From positions 4,990 through 68,989 of IMG/VR virus record IMGVR_UViG_3300026522_000030: DNA of 64,000 nucleotides; one strand, 5' to 3'. The translations under genes and the position numbers were made by a program. The notes under the pieces were generated by a model that had not been told where the DNA came from, searched no databases, and was given only the letters and a program-made list of their open reading frames with translations. Position 1 is the first letter of the stretch, and each line of letters begins with the position of its first letter. This DNA is from a virus. Lineage: Duplodnaviria; Caudoviricetes. Positions 1,965 through 13,663 of the stretch are shown one piece after another.

Positions 1965-2947
1965 TGGGGTTGGCGAAGATACAAACAGAAAGATATTTTG
2001 AAAAGGTCAGGACTAAGTATGGAGACAAGGTAGAAATACTTAGTGAGTATCAAGGAAAGGAAAGACCAATAACAATCTGTTACCATTGTGAGAAACATGG
2101 TGATACGGTTAAAACAATGGTCGCCAAAAATGTGTTTGACCGAGCTTTTAATCCATGCAAAGAGTGCAAAAAGGAAAAGAAGTCGATAGCAACGGCGAAT
2201 GCCCATAAGATGTCAAAAGAGGATTTGTATAATCGTCTTGTTGAATATTGTAAGACTTGGAATGGGAAAGTTCTTGAAAAGGAATGGGTTTCTGCCAAAA
2301 CAGTTTATCATTTTAAGTGTGACAATCCAGAACATCCAGCATTTGAATCAACGGCTGACTCATTGTTTAGTGGCAAACATGGTTGTCCATATTGTTGTGG
2401 TAGGAAAGGTAATTTTGCTGAACGCATTGCCATGTTGGTTAAAGAAAAAGGTGGTGAAATCGTAACGCCATATGTAAATGCTGATACGCCCATGAGAGTA
2501 AGATGTCTAAAACATAATCACGAGTGGAATATTACACCTGTTAATTTGATTAAAGGTAAATGGTGTAATGTTTGTAGTATGAGTATTAATGAAAAGACGG
2601 CATGGGATTGGTTTGTTAATAATAACTTTAATGTAACCACTCAATACAAGTTTGATGATTTAATAGGTGAAAATGGAAATCCATATAGGTTTGATTTCGC
2701 AATATTAGATAATAATGATAAATTATTATTTCTTGTAGAGATAGACGATGAGACTCATAGAAGCTCCAACGAGTGTTGGGCAGACGGACAAGAGAGAGAT
2801 AAAAGAAAGAACGAGTATTGTAAGAGACATAATATCTCATTATACAGAATACCGATTGAACGCTGGAAGATAGCTAAAAAAGGATACGATTGGTATTATT
2901 CATATCTTGATAATCAACTTAACTTTTTGAAGGGGGCAGTTGCTTGA
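1961..2947 (+). CDS. zinc-ribbon-repeat protein with C-terminal PD-(D/E)xK (Vsr/DUF559-like) nuclease; probable homing endonuclease
   Basis: repeated C-x2-H / C-x2-C units (CEKHG..CKEC, CDNPEH..CPYC, CLKHNH..CNVC); C-terminal 'FDFAI..LVEIDDETH'. Confidence 0.7.
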   Translation: MMGLAKIQTERYFEKVRTKYGDKVEILSEYQGKERPITICYHCEKHGDTVKTMVAKNVFDRAFNPCKECKKEKKSIATANAHKMSKEDLYNRLVEYCKTWNGKVLEKEWVSAKTVYHFKCDNPEHPAFESTADSLFSGKHGCPYCCGRKGNFAERIAMLVKEKGGEIVTPYVNADTPMRVRCLKHNHEWNITPVNLIKGKWCNVCSMSINEKTAWDWFVNNNFNVTTQYKFDDLIGENGNPYRFDFAILDNNDKLLFLVEIDDETHRSSNECWADGQERDKRKNEYCKRHNISLYRIPIERWKIAKKGYDWYYSYLDNQLNFLKGAVA

Positions 2948-5793
2948 ACACAAATTCTGTATACATACTTTCATGTGAGGCAAAAGACCTTTATGCAGCC
3001 AAGAGATTGGTTAATCCCGTAGTGGATGATAAAGGTGTGGTTCTCGGACATACCAACACCAATCTCAAACGATGGAAGAATACACTTGACTTTAGCCTTG
3101 ATCTTATGAAGCTTCGTGAAGTTGCATATCAGCATTACCACAACCGTAGTTCATTCTTCTTTGATAAGGATTTGGGTAAGGAATTTACTCAGCGTGTTAT
3201 CAATGTAGATTTTGACTTGGCTTATAAAGAGTGGAATCGTCATGGGGACATATATGTGCGTGATGGATATGGCATGGCAGACATCAAAGAGATTGGTAAG
3301 TATGGTGACAGAACATTCTATAAGGACGGAATCTGTATTGGTGTAAAGGTTGGCGATGTTACAGAAGATGAAGTCGTGGTGTGGGACGGCGTACCGAAGT
3401 ATTTTGTGTACGATGAAACTAATCACAAAATAAAGCTTGGCAAGAGCATACCAACACTTATGAGTCGTGGAGAGCTTCGCTTCGACCTCTACGAAAACGG
3501 ATTTATCTGTAACGGCATAAAGTATGTGCGCTACAAAAGATCGTCAGGCAGTAGTCGTGTTGGCAAGTGTCTCTTTATAGACGAGAACCTTTATCCTGCA
3601 ATGCACAAATGGGAGTTGTGTGGCTTAAAGATTAAAGAGGGCGACAAGATTGACCTCGCTGCATTTGAAGCTTATATCTCGTTACCTTCCAGTAGTTGCA
3701 TTGACACTCTTGAGATACGCCCTGAAAATATACTTGTCATTGATGACTATGAGTCCGAGTTTGAAGATGATGTTGTGGCGGTCTATGGTGAAGGTGAAGA
3801 TTTTGTTGCCAAAGAGGAACGAGCCAAGATAAAGAACAGTATTTGGGACGGACAAAGCCTTTTAGATGTTAGTATGTATGGTGAGCATTACTCTGATAGA
3901 ACAATGCTTTTGCTCCGCAACCGTTTCTTTAAGAGTGCTTGCTTTAAGGCAAGAATACAAGATTGGTTTAGAGATAATGGCATTACAGAAGTTTCACAGC
4001 TTAAAGGTTATACGAGAGCGACCTGTATAGAGGATATTAAACTCATTACTACTCCGTCCAGTATTAAGTATGTAAAGTTTGGCACGTTAGAGCAATGGCT
4101 CGACAATCTTTATCCGACTTTCGGAATAGTGAAGTACGAAAAGCCTACTAAGTATCTTGACGGTAGAATGGTTCAATGCCATTATCAGTTACTCAATTCT
4201 TTGCAACTGACTCGTGAAGATATACAGGCGTTACTCAAGCCCAACTTTGATTACCTTAATCTTATCCGCAAAGACCCTGCGGTAATGCGTTATCATCTGA
4301 AATACCCCTACGCTTTAGCAGATAATGACGAGCCTTGTCTGACGCGTGATGAAATTATAATGAAGGTAATAGGTATGAATAGCAAGTTTGTGGAAACAAA
4401 GTTGTATGACAACTTCCGCAAAGAACTTGTAAAGTCTATGCTTAAAGAATACCGCAGGGGGCATATTTGGATTAGTGGCAATTATGAAACTCTGATTGGC
4501 AATGGTATTGAAATGTTGCAAGCTACTATTGGTACGTTTAAAGGTGAGAGTGTCTTGGGCGTGGGGCATATCCACACAAAGAGATTCGAGTGCGGCAAGA
4601 CTTTGCTTGGCACAAGATCGCCTCATATAAATTCGGGCGATGTTTTACTTACAACCAATGTGGCAAATGAGCTTTATGATAGATATTTAGTTTCAAGCAA
4701 AGAAGTCGTGCATATTAACAGTATCAATGAAAACATATTGCAGAGGCTTCAAGGCGCGGACATGGACTCAGATTGTATATTACTCACCGATAATGAAACC
4801 CTTATAAATGCCGCTAAGAAAAATTACGATAAGTTTAGAGTTCCTACAAGTTTCATTGAGGCAAAGAAAATTCAATGGACTTACGATGCAAAGTCAAAGG
4901 CACAACTTGATATAAACACAAGTGTGAATCTCATCGGTCAAATTGTTAATGAATCGCAGTATCTTAATTCAATAATGTGGGAACGTATTTATGATGAAGT
5001 TAAACAAGGTGTTCCAAACGAAGAAGCAATTCTACATCAGCACAAATTGTATGATGATATTTGTATACTTAGTGCTGCAAGTGGGGCAGAGATTGACCGC
5101 GCCAAGAAGATGTTTGATGTTGATACATCGAAAATGCTTACTGTCCTTAAAGACAGATATGGCATCTATACGGATATTAATGGTAAGGAGAGATTCACAA
5201 AACCGCTTTTCTTTCGTAACATCACCCTCGGAAACGGATATACGCTTAATCCTAATCAGCATTATAGGCAGTTTGAAACATCTATGGATTATCTTCAGAA
5301 GGCAATTGATAAATTCAGAGCCGATAAGATTGAAGCAAAAAATCTGCCGTTCTGCGAGATTATTAAGCCTATAGATGTAGATTGGCGAAAGGCAAACTCT
5401 CGCCTTTACAATAAGGTTTACGAGATTATAAACAAAATTAAGAGTATGAGAGAAAGTATACAGAGTGCTTATGTTGGATATGCCGATAAGACTAAGGACG
5501 AAAAGAAACTCACAACCAAAGAAGTTGCAGAAATTAGAGGTCGTTGCGTAGACTATATTGCAAACATTCGCTTAAATGATGTGGAAATGTATTTGCTTTT
5601 GAGAGAGATAGACAAGGATAAAAATGCTGGATATGCAAGAACAATTTTTGACACATTGTTTGCAACAGGCAACGCTGACCTGTACGAAATGATAAGAAGT
5701 AGTTCTGACGAGCAGTATAAACTCTCGAAAAAGAGTAGCGAAAACTGCGTAAAACTGTTTGATTATGACTATTTTAAGCAAAAAATCGGCTAA
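2944..5793 (+). CDS. yonO: YonO-like single-subunit DNA-dependent RNA polymerase (two-barrel, RdRP-related)
   Basis: 949 aa; 'RSPHINSG' and catalytic 'GADMDSD' (DxDGD-type) motifs; position ahead of yonK-like and virion genes as in SPbeta. Confidence 0.85.
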   Translation: MNTNSVYILSCEAKDLYAAKRLVNPVVDDKGVVLGHTNTNLKRWKNTLDFSLDLMKLREVAYQHYHNRSSFFFDKDLGKEFTQRVINVDFDLAYKEWNRHGDIYVRDGYGMADIKEIGKYGDRTFYKDGICIGVKVGDVTEDEVVVWDGVPKYFVYDETNHKIKLGKSIPTLMSRGELRFDLYENGFICNGIKYVRYKRSSGSSRVGKCLFIDENLYPAMHKWELCGLKIKEGDKIDLAAFEAYISLPSSSCIDTLEIRPENILVIDDYESEFEDDVVAVYGEGEDFVAKEERAKIKNSIWDGQSLLDVSMYGEHYSDRTMLLLRNRFFKSACFKARIQDWFRDNGITEVSQLKGYTRATCIEDIKLITTPSSIKYVKFGTLEQWLDNLYPTFGIVKYEKPTKYLDGRMVQCHYQLLNSLQLTREDIQALLKPNFDYLNLIRKDPAVMRYHLKYPYALADNDEPCLTRDEIIMKVIGMNSKFVETKLYDNFRKELVKSMLKEYRRGHIWISGNYETLIGNGIEMLQATIGTFKGESVLGVGHIHTKRFECGKTLLGTRSPHINSGDVLLTTNVANELYDRYLVSSKEVVHINSINENILQRLQGADMDSDCILLTDNETLINAAKKNYDKFRVPTSFIEAKKIQWTYDAKSKAQLDINTSVNLIGQIVNESQYLNSIMWERIYDEVKQGVPNEEAILHQHKLYDDICILSAASGAEIDRAKKMFDVDTSKMLTVLKDRYGIYTDINGKERFTKPLFFRNITLGNGYTLNPNQHYRQFETSMDYLQKAIDKFRADKIEAKNLPFCEIIKPIDVDWRKANSRLYNKVYEIINKIKSMRESIQSAYVGYADKTKDEKKLTTKEVAEIRGRCVDYIANIRLNDVEMYLLLREIDKDKNAGYARTIFDTLFATGNADLYEMIRSSSDEQYKLSKKSSENCVKLFDYDYFKQKIG

Positions 5794-6215: not shown

Positions 6216-6977
6216 ATGGCTAAGAAGAAACCAGAAACAAAAGTTGATGAAGCAATAGAAAAGGAAATCCCAGAAGGATATGTAGAAATTACACCAGAAC
6301 AACTTATGGAATTGCAGGGCGGCGGAATCCAAACTGTAATGAATATTGGTCTTGGTGAAAAACTTGTTCTTGAAGATATGCAGGATCGCATTATGTATCT
6401 TGATGGCGAGGTAAATTCAGATGTACTTCATACGATAATAATGCAGATATACAAATTAAACGGCATTGATATTGGTCTTGAACCAGAAGATATGCAGCCT
6501 ATTATACTCATTATTAATTCTGGCGGCGGTTCTGTTATGGACGGACTTGCTTTATGCGATGCTATTAATGCGAGTCGTGTGCCTGTAATTGCAATATGTA
6601 TTGGCTACGCATATAGTATGGCGTTCAACATTTTTACTCAGTGTGATTTGAGACTTGCTACTAAGAACGCATCATTCTTATATCACGACGGTTGGACTTG
6701 TGATAGCAATGTTTCGAGTAAGGTAAAAGACGCAGCTAAGTTTTATGACAAAGTTGACGAGCGTGTAAATAAGCTCATTGCAAATAAGACAAAACTTACA
6801 GCAGATTATCTTTCAAGTATAGCAAGAGCAGACACATATTGGTTTGCTGACGAAGGCAAAGAAAATGGATTTGTTGATGCTATTATAGGCGAAGATATTG
6901 ATATAGCGGAAATATTCGGCTTTATGGGAGATATGTCTTGCGAGTGCAACCACGATGAGTGTGATTGCGAGAAGTGA
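6216..6977 (+). CDS. clpP: ClpP-family serine protease
   Basis: 'YLDGEV', 'IINSGGGSV', catalytic 'AYSMA', 'LYHDG' and 'GFVDAII' motifs. Confidence 0.85.
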   Translation: MAKKKPETKVDEAIEKEIPEGYVEITPEQLMELQGGGIQTVMNIGLGEKLVLEDMQDRIMYLDGEVNSDVLHTIIMQIYKLNGIDIGLEPEDMQPIILIINSGGGSVMDGLALCDAINASRVPVIAICIGYAYSMAFNIFTQCDLRLATKNASFLYHDGWTCDSNVSSKVKDAAKFYDKVDERVNKLIANKTKLTADYLSSIARADTYWFADEGKENGFVDAIIGEDIDIAEIFGFMGDMSCECNHDECDCEK

Positions 6978-6988
6978 GGTGTGCCCTC

Positions 6989-8410
6989 ATGGCAAAGAAA
7001 GATAAAGTTAAAATTGAGTTTGCGGGTATGAACGCAGAAGGCGTAACTGGCTCAATGTTGTATATTACCTATAATGATAAGCAGATATTGTTAGAGGCAG
7101 GTCTGTATCAGACGAGTGGAGATGATATTCTTAAACAGTATAAGATCAACCATAGGAATTATAAAATTCCTTTTGACAGTCTTGATGCTGTTGTAATATC
7201 TCACAATCACATAGACCATGTGGGGCTTGTTCCCTATTTGTTTGCTCGTGGTTATCGTGGCAATGTTTATATCCCCAAAGGCAATAAATTGCTTGCTCGT
7301 ATTATGTGGGAAGATAGTCTTAAAATATTTGAGAGCGACTGTGTAAAACTTGAAAAGCGTTATGATATGAACGCAACACCTTTATACACACAAGAAGATA
7401 TTGAGATTGCACTTGAACATTTGGTTGAATTACCGTTTGGCGAGGACATAGTTCTTTTTGACGATTTGACTTTGCATTATTATCACGCAAGTCATATTGT
7501 TAATGCAGCACAGGTGCGACTGAGTTTTAAAATTGGCGAAACTACCAAAGTCTTAGGATTTACCGGCGACATTGGAAGTGACATAGATAAAGAATATCTT
7601 TTACCTTGTGAACCTATGCCCTATTGTGATATTGTGCTTGGTGAGTGTACTTATGGTGGAAGTCACAAGACACATAAACAGAAAGATAGGCTTAAAGATA
7701 TTGAAAAAATCAAGTGCGTTGTTGACCAGTGTTGCCAACATGATACGCAAAAAGTTGTATTTGGCTCATTCTCACTTAATCGTTTACAGGATATATTAAC
7801 TACGCTGTATAAGATATACGGTGAAGATGAAACATTTGCAACCCCAATCATAATAGACGCGCCACTTGGTAGGAAGATTACCGATATATGGGATAAACTT
7901 ATAGAAAAGGATAATGACCTTTGGAAGAAAGTTATCTCTTGGAAGAATATCGTGTGGGTCAATACTTATGAAGAATCTCAGCAATGGCAGAAATTAAAAA
8001 CTTCGCAGGTGGTTATAACGACTTCCAACTTTCTTAAAGCAGGTCGTGTGGTAAGTTGGCTCAAATCTGTATTACCAAACGAGAACGCTCGCATCTGCCT
8101 CTGTGGATACGCAGGCGATGAAAACAGTGTTGCTTATCAAATTCAGCATTGCAAGAAATGGGTAACAATAGACGGTGAGCGTGTGAGAAGCAGAGCTAAT
8201 GTAATGCAGCTTACATCATTTTCAAGTCACGCTTGCAGGAGCGAATTGCTTGATAGATATACCACTATGCCATATAATAAGATTTATTTGGTGCATGGTG
8301 AGAAATCTGGCAAGGAAGAATTTGCAAAGCTGTTGCGTGATAGTTTAAGCAAGGCGGACAGGAGCGCAAAGGTTCATATTCCTGTAATGGGAGATAATAT
8401 AAGTTTTTAA
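6989..8410 (+). CDS. metallo-beta-lactamase / beta-CASP ribonuclease
   Basis: HNHIDH, ASHI, FTGDIG, GECTYG, FSSHA and LVHGE motifs. Confidence 0.85.
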   Translation: MAKKDKVKIEFAGMNAEGVTGSMLYITYNDKQILLEAGLYQTSGDDILKQYKINHRNYKIPFDSLDAVVISHNHIDHVGLVPYLFARGYRGNVYIPKGNKLLARIMWEDSLKIFESDCVKLEKRYDMNATPLYTQEDIEIALEHLVELPFGEDIVLFDDLTLHYYHASHIVNAAQVRLSFKIGETTKVLGFTGDIGSDIDKEYLLPCEPMPYCDIVLGECTYGGSHKTHKQKDRLKDIEKIKCVVDQCCQHDTQKVVFGSFSLNRLQDILTTLYKIYGEDETFATPIIIDAPLGRKITDIWDKLIEKDNDLWKKVISWKNIVWVNTYEESQQWQKLKTSQVVITTSNFLKAGRVVSWLKSVLPNENARICLCGYAGDENSVAYQIQHCKKWVTIDGERVRSRANVMQLTSFSSHACRSELLDRYTTMPYNKIYLVHGEKSGKEEFAKLLRDSLSKADRSAKVHIPVMGDNISF

Positions 8411-8617: not shown

Positions 8618-8679
8618 ATAATAAAGGGGATAAATTTATATTCTCACAAATCAACAAATTAAGTTTGGAGGTGAATCTG

Positions 8680-9777
8680 GTGGCAAACAAAGCGTATAAA
8701 TTTAGACTATATCCTAATGAAGAACAAAAGATATTATTTGCAAAGACCTTTGGTTGTGTCAGATTCATTTACAATCAAATGCTTTCAGATAAGATAGCAC
8801 ACTATAAAGAAACTGGAATGAAGCTCAATAATACTCCTGCACAGTACAAGAAAGAGTTTGAATGGCTTAAAGAAGTTGACAGCCTTGCTCTCGCAAACGC
8901 ACAAATGAACTTGCAGACCGCTTATAATAACTTCTTTAGAACGCCTAAAGTTGGCTTCCCTAAGTTCAAGAGCAAAAAGAAAGATAAGGACAGCTATACC
9001 ACCAATAATCAAAATGGTACAGTAAGTATTATTGACAAGAAACTTAGGTTGCCAAAAGTTGGTCTTGTAAAAATGGTACAACACAGAACAATTTCAGACA
9101 ATGAAAAAATTAAGTCTGCTACAATTACAAGAACGCCAACAGGTAAATATTATGTTTCTATTCTTGTGGAGTATGACAAAACTATTCCTGAGATAGAATT
9201 GTCAAAGGATAAAGCGATAGGATTAGATTACGCAAGTCATAGCTTTTATGTCGATAGTCAAGGCAGAGAAGCAAACTATCCTAAGTTCTATCGTAAGGCA
9301 CAAGACAAACTGGCTCGTGAACAACGCAAACTTGCTAATATGAAGTATGGTAGCAATAACTACCATAAACAAAAAATCAAAGTTGCGAGGATTCACGAAA
9401 GGGTTGCAAATCAGCGTTTGGATTGGATTCACAAACTCAGCACACAATTGGCGAGTGAATACGATATAGTTTGTGTGGAGGATATAAATATGCAGAACAT
9501 GGCAAGGTCATTAAAGTTAGGAAAGTCAACTAATGATAATGGTTTTGGAATGTTCAGAGATATTCTTTCTTACAAACTCGCTGACCGTGGCAAAGCATTT
9601 GTAAAGATTGATAAATGGTTTCCGTCGAGCAAGATGTGTAGGCATTGCGGTTCTATCAACCACGAGCTTACACTTTCAGACAGAGTTTGGACTTGCGGTT
9701 GCGGTGCTACAATCAATCGTGACGAAAACGCTGCAATAAACATAATGAATGAAGGTTTGAGAATGATATTCTCATAA
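8680..9777 (+). CDS. tnpB: TnpB RNA-guided endonuclease
   Basis: N-terminal 'AYKFRLYPN..Q..LFAKTFGCVRFIYN'; RuvC residues in GLDY, VEDI and RDENAA; Zn finger CRHC..CGC. Confidence 0.95.
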   Translation: MANKAYKFRLYPNEEQKILFAKTFGCVRFIYNQMLSDKIAHYKETGMKLNNTPAQYKKEFEWLKEVDSLALANAQMNLQTAYNNFFRTPKVGFPKFKSKKKDKDSYTTNNQNGTVSIIDKKLRLPKVGLVKMVQHRTISDNEKIKSATITRTPTGKYYVSILVEYDKTIPEIELSKDKAIGLDYASHSFYVDSQGREANYPKFYRKAQDKLAREQRKLANMKYGSNNYHKQKIKVARIHERVANQRLDWIHKLSTQLASEYDIVCVEDINMQNMARSLKLGKSTNDNGFGMFRDILSYKLADRGKAFVKIDKWFPSSKMCRHCGSINHELTLSDRVWTCGCGATINRDENAAINIMNEGLRMIFS

Positions 9778-9873
9778 TCAAATAGAAGAACCGTAGGAAC
9801 TACGGGGATAGCTCGTTGATACTGGTAGCAATAGTTACCTTGAGCGAGAAGCCCGTTACGACGGGTAGTTCAC
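9700..9873 (+). ncRNA. TnpB omega/reRNA scaffold (5' boundary approximate)
   Basis: CCGTAG-GAA-CTACGG-GGATAGC hairpin, GGTAGC/GTTACC stem and right-end hairpin ending TCAC. Confidence 0.7.
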
Positions 9874-9992
9874 AGGTAGCCAGTGGGCGCAGAGATTATA
9901 GGGTACTTCCCTACTCGCCTTTATAAAAATATGCGATTTTGTGGTAAATCGCGATTTAGAAAATCGCGATTTGTGTAAAAGGAGAAATAAAT

Positions 9993-10209: not shown

Positions 10210-11376
10210 TTGGGGATTTCAGCTAAAAAGAAATTCACCAAGTCTGAGCTACGTGAAATCTATACCGTATGCTCTCGCAAAGACCTTACCGGCGATTGGA
10301 AGAAAATTGCCGAAGAATTAAATAAAAGATTTGGCAAGGAGTATGACGAGTCTTGCTACAGAAAAAAATATCAAGCTTACTGCGAAATGAAAGAAGCCTG
10401 TAAAGAAATAGATAGTGATTTTTCAGGCGATACAACGGATGTTGCCGTGCTGAAGCGTGAACTTGAACGTGCCAAGATACAGTTCCGTGACGAGCGCAAC
10501 GCTTGGCAGAGACAGAACTACAATTCTGCAAGAGTTGAACAGAAACTTGACTATCTCGAAAAGGTAATCACTGAAAGCAATCCGACAGATTTGCAGATTT
10601 CACTCCGAGAGAATAACGCCAAGAAAACAGCAATTATCACTTGTTCCGACTGGCATATAGGTGAATGCTTTGACAACGAGTGGGGTTGCTACAACTCTAC
10701 AATTGCTCGTCATCGCATTGAAGAATATGCAAGTAAGGCAATTCAGAGATGTATTTTAGAGGGTATTTCTAATGTGATTATAGCTGGCTGTGGTGATCTA
10801 TGCAGTGGCAACATTCACGCCGCGATTGCCGTTACAAATAGGGAAAATGTTATTGAACAAATTATGCTCGCAAGTGAATATATGCTTGGTTTTGTAAAGG
10901 CATTTGTTGATAAGGGATTTGTGGTAACATTTACAAATATTGCAGGAAATCATTCAAGGATTTCGAGAAAAGATGAAGCCGTTAAAGACGAAAGGCTTGA
11001 CAATCTCGTGGGTTGGTTTGTATCTACTCACTTAAAGGATTATCCTAACTTCATCTACGCAAAGCCACAAGATACAACTCTTGCAGAAATAGATGGCTAT
11101 TGGTTTGTTCATGGTGACAATGACGTATTTGGTAAGGCGGGGTTGAGCAATCTCGTTCTTGCAAAAGGATATAAACCTCATGCGATTTTCAGTGGTCATA
11201 TGCATACAATGGCGATTGATGACTGCTACGACGTAAAGATTTGTCGTGGCGGTAGCCTCTGCGGTAGTGGTAACGATTATACAATTGAGAAACGACTTAA
11301 AGGTAAGCCGACTCAGCTCATGGCAATTGCCGAGAACGGAGAGGTTTGTCAATTCTATAATATTATTTTAGATTAA
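10210..11376 (+). CDS. calcineurin-like metallophosphoesterase with N-terminal HTH/coiled coil (YonJ-like position)
   Basis: SDWH, GD, GNH, HGD and GHMH motifs. Confidence 0.85.
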   Translation: MGISAKKKFTKSELREIYTVCSRKDLTGDWKKIAEELNKRFGKEYDESCYRKKYQAYCEMKEACKEIDSDFSGDTTDVAVLKRELERAKIQFRDERNAWQRQNYNSARVEQKLDYLEKVITESNPTDLQISLRENNAKKTAIITCSDWHIGECFDNEWGCYNSTIARHRIEEYASKAIQRCILEGISNVIIAGCGDLCSGNIHAAIAVTNRENVIEQIMLASEYMLGFVKAFVDKGFVVTFTNIAGNHSRISRKDEAVKDERLDNLVGWFVSTHLKDYPNFIYAKPQDTTLAEIDGYWFVHGDNDVFGKAGLSNLVLAKGYKPHAIFSGHMHTMAIDDCYDVKICRGGSLCGSGNDYTIEKRLKGKPTQLMAIAENGEVCQFYNIILD

Positions 11377-11389
11377 GGTGGTGATTGAT

Positions 11390-11812
11390 ATGACCATATC
11401 TGAATCCATATGCAAAAAGTATAATAAGTACGAGGATTTTGCATCTGAATTTGTACGCTCCGCTATGGAGAATGAATCCGCATTTCTTATAGTGAATTGG
11501 CAGGATGCTCTCGGCGTATGTCAGTTGCTTAATACCTTTACGATTAATGGCAACAGCGTTGTTATGAATCGTGAATTTGTGGACGAGGCTTATGCGGATA
11601 TTGAGGAAGTCAAGCAGTGCGACGGTAATATGCTAATTACTTTGTTTGATAACGGAGAAATGATTTGCGAAAAGGCTCTAAGCGACGAGTCAGCGTATGT
11701 GGATGACGGAGTGTATTTTGTCGAGTACAGCGCAAACGACTTTGTTCTGCCTTTACACGCAACAGTTGTGCCGTTTAAGGTGGAAACCGAGATTTTTGAA
11801 AATGTATTTTGA
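11390..11812 (+). CDS. hypothetical acidic protein
   Basis: ORF with AAGGTGG RBS in operon. Confidence 0.7.
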   Translation: MTISESICKKYNKYEDFASEFVRSAMENESAFLIVNWQDALGVCQLLNTFTINGNSVVMNREFVDEAYADIEEVKQCDGNMLITLFDNGEMICEKALSDESAYVDDGVYFVEYSANDFVLPLHATVVPFKVETEIFENVF

Positions 11813-11814
11813 TG

Positions 11815-12280
11815 TAGGCAGAGGCAATAGCCTTTGTTGAAATAAATGCTGCCATCGAGGGGCAGGATAAAGATACCTGTACATCCCGAAAGGGATGCTG
11901 TGGAGAGCAACTGCAACGATGTTGTAATCCGCACCAAAGTAAATCTCAGAGAGTAACTCCACGATTAAACTGTTGTCGTAAAATCCGAGGTTTTATGTAC
12001 CTTGCAAGCCTCTGTTATGCCTACAAGCTGACTACGCAAGGTCTTTTATGGTTGCCACGACCTGATGTGGAAAGGCAAACCTGCGCATTGGTAGGCTACG
12101 GACAAGTAGCAAACTTGCGCATTATCGCACCATCGTCTATGATTAGTAAGGACATCGCCCTTTCAAGGCGAAAAGGACGGAGCATCGCCGTCTGGTGTGA
12201 CCATACCTCTTTTGAGGCGACTATGTGTGCTGTTGCAATTCTCTCCGCTTAATTGTGTTAAAAGCAATTTTGTGGAGGAG
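11815..12280 (+). ncRNA. candidate large structured ncRNA (family unassigned)
   Basis: gap between a gene stop and the tRNA with many nested stems, a GAAA tetraloop and a long-range closing helix 11900-11917/12232-12248. Confidence 0.6.
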
Positions 12281-12282
12281 AT

Positions 12283-12356
12283 AGGGAGTTAGTTCAATGG
12301 TAGAACGGCGGTCTCCAAAACCGTTAATCAGAGTTCGAGTCTTTGACTTCCTGCCA
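12283..12356 (+). tRNA. trnW: tRNA-Trp (CCA)
   Basis: acceptor AGGGAGT/ACTTCCT, D arm, anticodon loop CT-CCA-AA, TTCGA T loop, encoded 3' CCA. Confidence 0.95.
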
Positions 12357-12511
12357 GACGTATTATAGCGTCATAAGCATTAAAGGTAGATAGAGAGAAC
12401 CGATCATTCTCTTGACAAGTGTCACCATTCACTTCTGTCTTTATAATCTTTAAATGGAGTTAAGAATTAGAGTAAAAAAATAATATAATTACGATGTATC
12501 GGTAAAAAGTA

Positions 12512-12598
12512 TGATTTTAGTGGGAATTTATTTCCCATAAAGCGATGTGTTTTGGGAAAATTTTTCTCATTTGGGAAATTTATTCCCAAGTAAAATCA
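12512..12598. repeat. three 17-bp inverted repeats TGGGAA-N5-TTCCCA inside an outer inverted repeat
   Basis: copies at 12521-12537, 12553-12569 (one mismatch) and 12572-12588; outer arms TGATTTTA (12512) / TAAAATCA (12591-12598). Confidence 0.85.
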
Positions 12599-12616
12599 GT
12601 GTAAGGAGATGATTGA

Positions 12617-13663
12617 ATGGAAGGCAGATCGACAGTCTATAATAAAATTACGAGTGAAGAAAAAATTGCTCAAATAAACATTAAAAATCAAGAATTATGT
12701 TCTGATTTCATTGAATATCTCAAATCTATTGATAGAAGTCCAAGCACCATTTATGCTTATGAGCAAGATTTGAATGTTTTTATGGTTTGGAATCTTGAAA
12801 ATAATTCTAATAAAGAATTTATAAAGATTACCAAACGAGAACTGACTAAGTTTCAAAATCACGCTTTAAATGTGTGGGGTTGGAGTCCGAGACGGCTACG
12901 CAGGATAAAAAGCGTGATTAGTAGTTTGTCGAATTTTATCACGGACATTCTCGATGAGGAAGAAGAATATCAAGATTTTAAGAGTATTATCAAAAAGATA
13001 CCATCTCCTTTAAATGAAGAAGTAAGAGAGAAAACTGTTTTTGAACCTGAAGAACTTGAAAAATTACTTAACAAACTTGTGGAAGAAAAGAAGTATATGC
13101 AAGCTTGCATGGTTAGTCTTGCTATGAACTCTGGTAGACGGAAATCGGAATTGCCACGTTTCAAAGTTGAATACTTCGACAAGAGCAATATCAAATTTGG
13201 CTCGTTATATTGCACCCCCGAAAAAGTTAAAACTAAAGGCAGGGGTGTAAAAGGCAAACAACTAACTTTATACGTTCTTAAAAATGGTTTTGAAAAATAT
13301 CTCAATCTTTGGTTAGAGGAAAGAGAACGACTTGGTATTACGAGTGAATGGCTGTTCCCCGATAAGATTAATGGTAAGTGGAGCGAAACCAATCAAATTG
13401 CTATTGGAAAACTTGACGGTTGGGCGGATTATTATTCTCAAATTTTAGGCAAGCCATTTTACTGGCACTCATTGAGACATTATTTTACTACCATGTGTGT
13501 AAAAAGTAAATTGCCTCAAAATGTAATTCAAAGCATAATCGGTTGGACGAGTGGTGACATGGTAAATTTGTACACGGATTTGAGCGTAGAAGATACTATC
13601 GGTGAATATTTCAATGAGGACGGTATCGTCGTTCACGAAGAAAAGAAACTGTCCGATATATAG
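12617..13663 (+). CDS. tyrosine recombinase (XerC/integrase family)
   Basis: GRRKSE, KTK, HSLRH, IGW and NLY catalytic set (R-K-H-R-W-Y); N-terminal SAM-like domain. Confidence 0.9.
   Translation: MEGRSTVYNKITSEEKIAQINIKNQELCSDFIEYLKSIDRSPSTIYAYEQDLNVFMVWNLENNSNKEFIKITKRELTKFQNHALNVWGWSPRRLRRIKSVISSLSNFITDILDEEEEYQDFKSIIKKIPSPLNEEVREKTVFEPEELEKLLNKLVEEKKYMQACMVSLAMNSGRRKSELPRFKVEYFDKSNIKFGSLYCTPEKVKTKGRGVKGKQLTLYVLKNGFEKYLNLWLEERERLGITSEWLFPDKINGKWSETNQIAIGKLDGWADYYSQILGKPFYWHSLRHYFTTMCVKSKLPQNVIQSIIGWTSGDMVNLYTDLSVEDTIGEYFNEDGIVVHEEKKLSDI

Follow-up and report, generated by a model that had tools for sequence, protein, structure and literature searches.

What is encoded in the hairpin-dense stretch at positions 11815-12280 of the phage record IMGVR_UViG_3300026522_000030, directly upstream of a tRNA-Trp gene? 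A preliminary description of this DNA had proposed that its roughly 465 nucleotides (nt) form one large ornate non-coding RNA, held together by a long-range closing stem and representing either a short relative of the GOLLD and ROOL RNAs or a new class. We analyzed the stretch within a 64,000-nt window, which spans positions 4990-68989 of an IMG/VR virus record that is linear, 69 kb long and an estimated 69% complete; DNA of this record is present in bovine gut metagenomes. Our results indicate that positions 11815-12356 probably make up the 5' portion of an array of small RNAs and tRNAs on the phage's + strand, composed of several RNAs rather than one. Judged from the sequence, the locus is most likely a phage tRNA cluster with small stable RNAs, a known kind of locus, that bears undescribed RNA modules.

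Modular anatomy of the stretch

Relatives of the locus were collected through the neighboring metallophosphoesterase gene, yielding 28 loci, the closer of which carry tRNA arrays at the same place; further copies came from pattern scans of viral and metagenome contigs (L numbers denote loci from both sources). As the preliminary description had noted, the gap holds no supported gene: positions 11813-12282 contain no conserved open reading frame (ORF), and the 85-aa frame at 11995-12252 carries a 1-nt insertion in L003 and L005 (with a stop after 23 codons) and also in L050, while in other relatives its second half is swapped for different tRNA genes. The stretch is also packed with helices, as had been claimed, and its folds are more stable than those of shuffled controls (z -3.9 on the + strand, z -3.7 on the - strand). 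Single changes in paired positions give G.U pairs on the + strand only, a + strand RNA signal. The features of the array are the following (MFE, minimum free energy).

11817-11936, + strand: element A, three hairpins and a tRNA-like minihelix
11817-11837, + strand: hairpin H1, 8 bp with an AAUA loop, starting 5 nt past the stop codon of ORF 11378-11812
11849-11865, + strand: hairpin H2, 5-6 bp, with five stem sequences (window, L002, L005, L156, L007), all complementary
11882-11897, + strand: hairpin H3, 6 bp with a GAAA tetraloop, showing two-sided stem changes; GAAA is kept in 4 of 6 relatives
11900-11936, + strand: tRNA-like minihelix of 37 nt, the 3' end of element A
11937-11999, + strand: element I, a long hairpin (11943-50/11984-91) followed by a U-rich run; window, L003 and L167 only
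12000-12126, + strand: module B, 127 nt, three domains (RNAalifold)
12000-12042, + strand: CUCU-loop hairpin, the 5' domain of module B, with outer helix 12000-05/12036-41 and inner helix 12007-09/12027-29
12050-12081, + strand: middle hairpin P2 of module B (12050-52/12079-81 and 12054-56/12074-76), an RNAalifold prediction in which every pair is invariant
12082-12126, + strand: 3' domain of module B, a UGCGCA clamp (12082-87/12116-21) around a hairpin (12095-99/12106-10) with a GGACAA loop
12126-12203, + strand: non-canonical tRNA-Glu(UUC) with encoded CCA (ARAGORN; Rfam tRNA)
12206-12217, + strand: small hairpin CCUC-UUUU-GAGG, weak, from the sequence and the MFE fold; a similar one occurs in L050
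12241-12280, + strand: element D, a hairpin of 12243-48/12272-77 with inner helix 12251-55/12265-69 (MFE), ending 5 nt before tRNA-Trp
12283-12356, + strand: canonical tRNA-Trp(CCA) (ARAGORN; Rfam, 63.3 bits)

The homology of the relatives to the window, as seen in BLAST matches and alignments, is patchy and breaks sharply at the borders of these modules. Elements A and I, module B, tRNA-Glu, element D and tRNA-Trp are each conserved separately and shuffled separately, and module order and content vary among the relatives, with whole tRNAs or other modules inserted between the pieces. Since the units recombine freely and their overall order is not conserved, the stretch does not constitute a single 465-nt RNA. 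The long-range closing stem (11900-07/12241-48) is unsupported because both of its strands have conserved local partners, 11900-04 pairing with 11928-32 in the minihelix and 12243-48 with 12272-77 in hairpin D. The apparent stem is an artefact of a repeated hexamer, and hairpin D is kept in relatives that lack the 5' element. A further proposed stem (11912-17/12232-37) is likewise lost, 11912-17 being the loop of the minihelix. Hairpin D itself is kept before the last tRNA (Trp or Met) in L006, L050, L152, L007, L002 and L003, with alternation between G.U and A-U pairs.

Two of the units, the minihelix and tRNA-Glu, are tRNA or tRNA-like, and both end in ACCA. The tRNA-Glu gene, which takes up one sixth of the 465-nt stretch, replaces what had been drawn as a junction closed by GCACCA/UGGUGU (12127-32/12193-98): this is a tRNA cloverleaf, called as tRNA-Glu by ARAGORN and aligned to the full Rfam model RF00005 (positions 1-71) at 32.6 bits, with a gathering score of 29 and an E value of 9e-6 in a 93-base search. 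Default filters dropped it from Rfam searches of the whole window and of 1 kb at E<=10, and the search of a short stretch recovered it; at gathering score, the whole window returned tRNA-Trp alone. The cloverleaf is full, with a 7-nt anticodon loop (CUUUCAA) that has U33 and a purine at position 37, and with ACCA at 12200-03. Its elbow is aberrant, the T loop (AGCAUCG) lacking U54, U55 and A58 and the 11-nt D loop lacking GG. The same odd tRNA-Glu is found in L003 and L152, where only the T loop drifts (AGCGUCA, AGCGUCG), and all four stems are intact in 3 of 3 copies; other relatives have a canonical tRNA-Glu at the equivalent place. The odd gene may encode a functional tRNA whose elbow has degenerated, or else a tRNA mimic.

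In agreement with the preliminary description, we found no match to tmRNA (ARAGORN) or to RNase P, signal recognition particle RNA, T-box or group I/II introns (Rfam). The GOLLD, ROOL and OLE models that it had named for comparison gave no match either, at gathering score or in relaxed searches at E<=10 of 11600-12600, 11810-12003 and 11990-12130. What stands of the earlier proposal is a conserved, structured non-coding locus beside phage tRNAs, with module B lying outside Rfam; a single GOLLD/ROOL relative of ~465 nt does not. Most of its local helices lie where they were drawn, and those at 11818-37, 11882-97 and 12095-12110 (GCUAC/GUAGC) are kept by covariation or by G.U-only changes. The UUGCC/GGCAA pairing is present where it was placed and never varies, and the CCTC/GAGG pairing downstream of the supposed junction is the weak hairpin at 12206-12217.

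Element A shows 14 pairs with changes on both sides among the relatives. The stem of H1 differs in L002, L005, L038 and L156 yet still pairs, partly through + strand-only G.U pairs. The minihelix that closes the element is built of 5 bp, a 2x2 purine internal loop and another 5 bp, giving 12 layers as in an acceptor/T-arm stack, and its 9-nt loop begins with UGCAA, which is T-loop-like with a G at position 55; an unpaired A and CCA come next. It is conserved in L002, L005, L007, L038, L156, L167 and L186, with one compensatory change from G-C to A-U in L007. Acceptor/T-arm minihelices and tRNA-like domains exist elsewhere, for example in the tRNA-like domain of tmRNA and in viral 3' tRNA-like structures. 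The 11900-11936 element resembles these in its 12-layer helix, UGCAA loop, unpaired purine and 3' CCA, and differs in having no D/anticodon part, a G for U55, a 9-nt loop and no mRNA-like domain. It could be a substrate of RNase P or of the CCA-adding enzyme.

Element I is absent in L002, L005 and L006; there module B directly adjoins element A or a different ACCA end. It resembles the Rfam family TEG147 weakly (25.9 bits, gathering score 56.1, E 0.003). A pairing drawn in the MFE fold between GCAGAGGC (11818-25) and the CUCU loop (12008-15) was dropped, as the relatives do not keep it. In some relatives element A is followed, or its place taken, by a different conserved block 100-230 nt long (L003 ~6900-7130, L152, L002/L038 ~6716-6812); this block has two strong hairpins and the same ...AUCCGCACCA tail at its end, and matches no Rfam family at gathering score.

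No sigma-70-like promoter or terminator was found on the + strand from the upstream ORF to tRNA-Trp, and the array is therefore most likely part of a longer transcript, probably shared with the upstream genes. In a size-fractionated bovine-gut metatranscriptome, contigs of close relatives run from the ORF end through element A into the start of module B, and cover 12000-12079 and 12126-12204, with DNA carry-over possible in all these cases. The RNA library X2 has contigs spanning 11399-11818 and 12179-12470 with a gap between them, and the contigs of libraries X22 and X8 derive from relatives; neither missing cover nor contig depth is a measure of expression or processing here.

Module B and its type-2 sister

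Module B (type 1) matches no Rfam family. Its mean column identity across 11 phages is 95%, as compared to 65-86% identity in the flanking protein and ~68-70% at the DNA level at the end of the upstream ORF. The 3' border of the module lies 4-7 nt ahead of the following tRNA or tRNA-like domain in every relative, whichever this happens to be: tRNA-Asn, tRNA-Glu, the odd tRNA-Glu, or a tRNA-like domain without an anticodon loop. In the window, the single-stranded linker that ends the 3' domain and reaches tRNA-Glu is 4-5 nt long (UUAUC).

The alignment contains three double-change pairs, with 98.8% of cells paired versus 21-35% when the partners are slid, a result reached by 1-2 of 500 shuffles. 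The compensatory double changes fall in two helices, the outer helix of the 5' hairpin and the UGCGCA/UGCGCA clamp, where they affect two pairs (L150/L155; L152); the hairpin inside the clamp shows G.U-only changes. The 5' hairpin has a bulged A, a 17-nt loop, a 6-nt 3' bulge and a trailing U, and its 30 loop and bulge nucleotides are invariant in the 11 phages, which argues for a partner. A pairing between 12019-24 and 12091-96 (GCCUAC/GUAGGC), also proposed in the preliminary description, shows zero covariation, is broken at 2 of its 6 pairs in L002, and has no 3' partner in L156. A hammerhead-like CUGAUG in P2 was rejected, its G being an A in most relatives.

Nine other loci (including L004, L007, L167-169, L173, L183 and L186) carry a sister module, type 2, whose 5' domain is different but whose 3' domain is shared with type 1: clamp, GNACAA-loop hairpin and UUAU linker. 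Its enclosed hairpin differs from that of type 1 but covaries. This module shows 12 double-change pairs, with none of 500 shuffles as good, and it also lies directly 5' of a tRNA.

A blastn search of 11700-12450 against 50,697 GenBank phages matched tRNA-Trp only, and a scan of viral contigs with 14-mers gave mostly chance matches. Scanning 185,579 representative bacterial genomes with the 3'-domain pattern returned zero copies, and the same scans of genome and metagenome contigs added one new phage copy (L208), the remaining hits being operator-like palindromes or coding sequence; neither a host nor a prophage copy was therefore found. In unrelated phages (L160, L162, L170, L174, L176, L178, L180, L212) the clamp decamer occurs within 14-bp perfect palindromes (of the form ATAATGCGCATTAT) that recur in promoter regions. 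They resemble operators of some repressor and give rise to false hits in pattern scans.

In four relatives a tRNA-like domain stands in the tRNA's place after the module (L005 6768-6830, L156 ~3810-3856, L173 ~11303-11350, L006 ~5640-5688). These domains have a 7-bp acceptor, a 5-bp T stem, a UGCAAYU/CGCAAUU loop and an ACCA/GCCA end; in place of an anticodon loop they have a hairpin with a 3-nt loop or nothing, and they are not called by ARAGORN.

abiF-like hairpins and the possible role of the array

The 5' hairpin of module B (12000-12042) aligns over its full length to the Rfam abiF model (RF03085) under relaxed filters, and is the best and sole candidate for this model in its genome. Shorter sister hairpins, located ~100 nt upstream of the type-1 or type-2 module in four relatives, score 28-29 bits (E 3e-5 to 3e-4 per genome), also below the abiF gathering score of 37. 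When 16 hairpins were aligned, the sisters and the module B copies formed one family, the module B copy carrying a 6-nt loop insertion; 100% of cells are paired, 7 of 9 pairs are changed on both sides, and 0 of 500 shuffles do as well. One member lies away from tRNAs (L150 465-501). The hairpin at 12000-12042 shares with abiF RNA a 6-bp outer helix, a bulged A, an AGC/GCU inner helix, a CUCU loop start, a 6-nt 3' bulge and a trailing U, and differs in its 17-nt loop, which is 6 nt longer (11 nt in the sisters). Abi_2 (PF07751) was not found in six phage records, namely the window's and those of five relatives, two of which are 100% complete; the hairpin is therefore an orphan, if it is abiF-related at all. 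Taken together, the family is best described as abiF-like in architecture, orphan, and outside abiF by the curated test, with the window copy the most divergent. A CUCU-loop hairpin in L006 (5500-5540) has the 17-nt loop of module B together with a CAAAU bulge, the sole family copy to do so, and may link the phage family to the Rfam abiF family as an intermediate form.

The AbiF (Abi_2) toxin of a C. difficile prophage has an RNA antitoxin, RCd22, which contains two abiF motifs and neutralizes AbiF in cis and in trans (bioRxiv 10.1101/2025.04.15.648962), and a cyanophage has been reported to carry an orphan abiF RNA (PMC9964418). The additional upstream copy in the relatives recalls the two motifs of RCd22. 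When a model of the phage hairpins (R1) was run with filters off on the 291-nt region of the RCd22 homologue in phage phiC2, its top match was abiF motif 2, at 10.9 bits.

We propose that host RNase P would cut the 5' ends of the minihelix (11900), tRNA-Glu (12126) and tRNA-Trp (12283), and that 3' trimming would halt at the encoded CCA ends, so that the tRNA-like units serve as punctuation. Such processing would leave the mRNA of ORF 11378-11812 with the three 3' hairpins H1-H3, and would free a small RNA of ~127 nt (190 nt with element I), its 3' end shielded by the clamp helix. Module B might then act in trans. The leading, though tentative, guess is that it is a decoy of the RNA antitoxin of a host abortive-infection toxin of the AbiF/Abi_2 type, working through its CUCU-loop hairpin; this is the sole concrete candidate for a partner. 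Otherwise, module B would be a stable phage small RNA with another target.

In the array of a relative (L004/G004) we found a 6A RNA (RF02925, 48.7 bits) and a DUF3800-I RNA (RF02969, 44.0 bits against a gathering score of 44.2, E 4e-7). Copies of these lie at L004 7240-7290, at L182 815-955 (the same contig, G004:4874-5014) and at L156 ~3540-3600. Both are Rfam motifs without an assigned function, and here they are orphans beside tRNAs: a DUF3800 protein was not found in the five records searched, with the G004 record only 52% complete. DUF3800 is an effector domain of type VII retrons (PMC7736814).

A wider possibility, which we regard as doubtful, is that the tRNA arrays of this group of rumen phages are anti-defence RNA islands, in which module B and the CUCU-loop hairpins would be toxin-less mimics of AbiF-type RNA antitoxins and the minihelix and tRNA-Glu would imitate tRNAs. 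Under this view the orphan DUF3800-I and 6A RNAs in relatives would serve as decoys, imitating RNA partners of further defence nucleases, and the ACCA minihelix and elbow-less tRNA-Glu would either punctuate the precursor or deal with tRNA-directed defence nucleases, by soaking them up or by escaping them. If this is true, several Rfam motifs that lack a function would be RNA partners of defence toxins, collected by phages beside tRNAs.

Several observations weigh against these interpretations. With regard to the array, its contigs cannot show transcript ends, processing sites or abundance, and the aberrant T and D loops leave the charging of tRNA-Glu in doubt. Neither P2 nor the proposed pairing between the loop and the 3' domain shows covariation. 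The modules form a small family of about a dozen type-1 and a dozen type-2 copies that are closely related, and the shuffle statistics therefore overstate independence. As for the link to abiF, the window hairpin scores 13.6 bits versus a gathering score of 37 (E 6, 0.7 per genome), and 4 of 14 control genomes likewise give hits to the abiF model at E<=10. The 3' bulge reads GACUAC in the window and (U)ACCAC in the sisters, versus CAAAU(A/C) in the Rfam consensus, and both abiF motifs of the RCd22 homologue in phiC2 have CAAAUA. The reciprocal match of R1 is weak, being lost with default filters over the whole of phage phiC2.

Modules A, I, B and D could in principle act only in cis, as leader, spacer and 3'-untranslated-region structures that guide or time tRNA maturation and stabilize the upstream mRNA. 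We consider this unlikely: the 30 invariant loop and bulge nucleotides exceed the needs of a spacer, the sequence of module B is kept regardless of the tRNA next to it, and hairpins of the same family occur away from tRNAs. The layout of the locus does speak for such a role, as module B and type-2 modules always directly precede a tRNA, separated from it by a single-stranded linker fixed at 4-7 nt, hairpin D is always ahead of the last tRNA, H1-H3 begin 5 nt past a stop codon, and no terminator or promoter separates the modules from the genes. Decaying tRNA debris and recombination scars of a fast-shuffling array, with a pseudo-tRNA-Glu, half-tRNA stubs and meaningless spacers, would account for the aberrant loops of tRNA-Glu and the drift of the T loop among its three copies, for the truncated tRNA-like form of the minihelix, and for a neighborhood that is mosaic and rich in indels. 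We hold this to be improbable, as module B is better conserved than the neighboring proteins, compensatory changes maintain helices in A, B and the hairpin family, and the tRNA-Glu stems have stayed intact.

An element acting at the DNA level (attP core or arm sites for the integrase, an operator or an origin) has a very small chance of being correct, even with an integrase gene just downstream, tRNA genes commonly serving as attachment sites, and UGCGCA being a palindrome whose decamer recurs in the operator-like palindromes of unrelated phages (L160, L176). The copies of the clamp covary mutually and not each as its own palindrome (L150, L152), many of the changes are of the G.U type that only a + strand RNA can tolerate, and the decamer is not enriched elsewhere in the window. 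Very improbable as well is the single large RNA, for which dense helices and some long-range pairs in the MFE fold could be cited. GOLLD and ROOL are single RNAs of ~580 nt and more with a conserved multi-domain fold (PMC5737381), and the array shares with them a phage or prophage context beside tRNA genes and a function that is not known. However, it has units of 40-130 nt with no covariance-model match or conserved overall fold, a bona fide tRNA inside the stretch, and closing strands that pair locally. Least of all do we favor a small protein gene in the 85-aa frame, to which we give next to no probability: it is an ATG-started open frame in the window and in L152, but it crosses the tRNA gene, is frameshifted or replaced in relatives, has no Pfam match, and had no ribosome-binding site noted for it in the preliminary description.

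In phage T4 the precursor of the tRNA cluster also yields the small stable species I and II RNAs (PMC2330249). As here, these are structured non-tRNA RNAs on the same strand, between or beside tRNA genes, presumably cut from a common precursor at tRNA ends, and their function is not known. The modules described here differ in being more numerous and shuffled among relatives, and in including ACCA minihelices and antitoxin-like hairpins; no sequence relation is expected, and the processing in our case is a prediction. The pseudo-ToxI of Pectobacterium phage PhiTE, a toxin-less antitoxin copy, silences an abortive-infection toxin (PMC3475682), and other phage orphan antitoxins have been described (PMC11825919). 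Its likeness to the array is one of concept only: ToxI consists of 36-nt units in tandem that its toxin cleaves, whereas the array has no tandem repeats and is not known to confer an escape phenotype.

These results dismiss one supposedly new large ornate RNA, and indicate that hairpin-dense gaps beside phage tRNAs can be mosaics of small RNA genes. They also add a tRNA gene that standard filtered scans overlook. New are at least two undescribed modules supported by covariation (type 1 and type 2) that share a tRNA-proximal 3' domain, and the ACCA minihelix. That phages may carry toxin-less antitoxin-like RNAs in their tRNA arrays (abiF-like here; DUF3800-I and 6A in relatives) is a testable lead, which bears on the countering of abortive-infection toxins and on the function of orphan Rfam motifs.

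Genomic setting and neighboring elements

The array is flanked by the following genes.

10210-11376: metallophosphoesterase, preceding ORF 11378-11812
11378-11812: ORF of 144 aa with no Pfam family, directly upstream of the array
12617-13663: tyrosine integrase, downstream of tRNA-Trp and followed by structural genes

The host is probably a rumen member of the Bacillota, because a YonO-like polymerase (2944-5793, labeled YonO-like in the preliminary description) has relatives, all distant, among cultured phages of Bacillota (Enterocloster, Thomasclavelia, Bacillus), and a YonK-like ORF is encoded in the same phage.

Farther upstream, 3.4 kb from the array, the + strand encodes a beta-CASP metallo-beta-lactamase with an RNA-specificity domain (6965-8410; Beta-Casp 6.5e-13, RMMBL 4e-10). 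Its product is a putative RNA nuclease of the RNase J/CPSF type, which might have a role in processing the array. An intact TnpB gene, unrelated to the array, lies 2 kb upstream (8665-9777, + strand; OrfB_IS605, Cas12f1-like TNB, helix-turn-helix); its guide RNA would be expected right after it, in the non-coding region 9778-9992.

In the same metagenomes, very abundant contigs from other organisms (depths 170-470; both ends loose) carry a nearly identical copy of the tRNA-Trp core (12290-12325). Lying 260 nt ahead of the integrase, this core could also serve as an attachment core. In the window (12357-12400), L005, L156 and L173, the array's last tRNA or tRNA-like unit is followed by a conserved short hairpin and then AUAAGCAUUAAAGG, just ahead of the TGGGAA-N5-TTCCCA repeats and the integrase.

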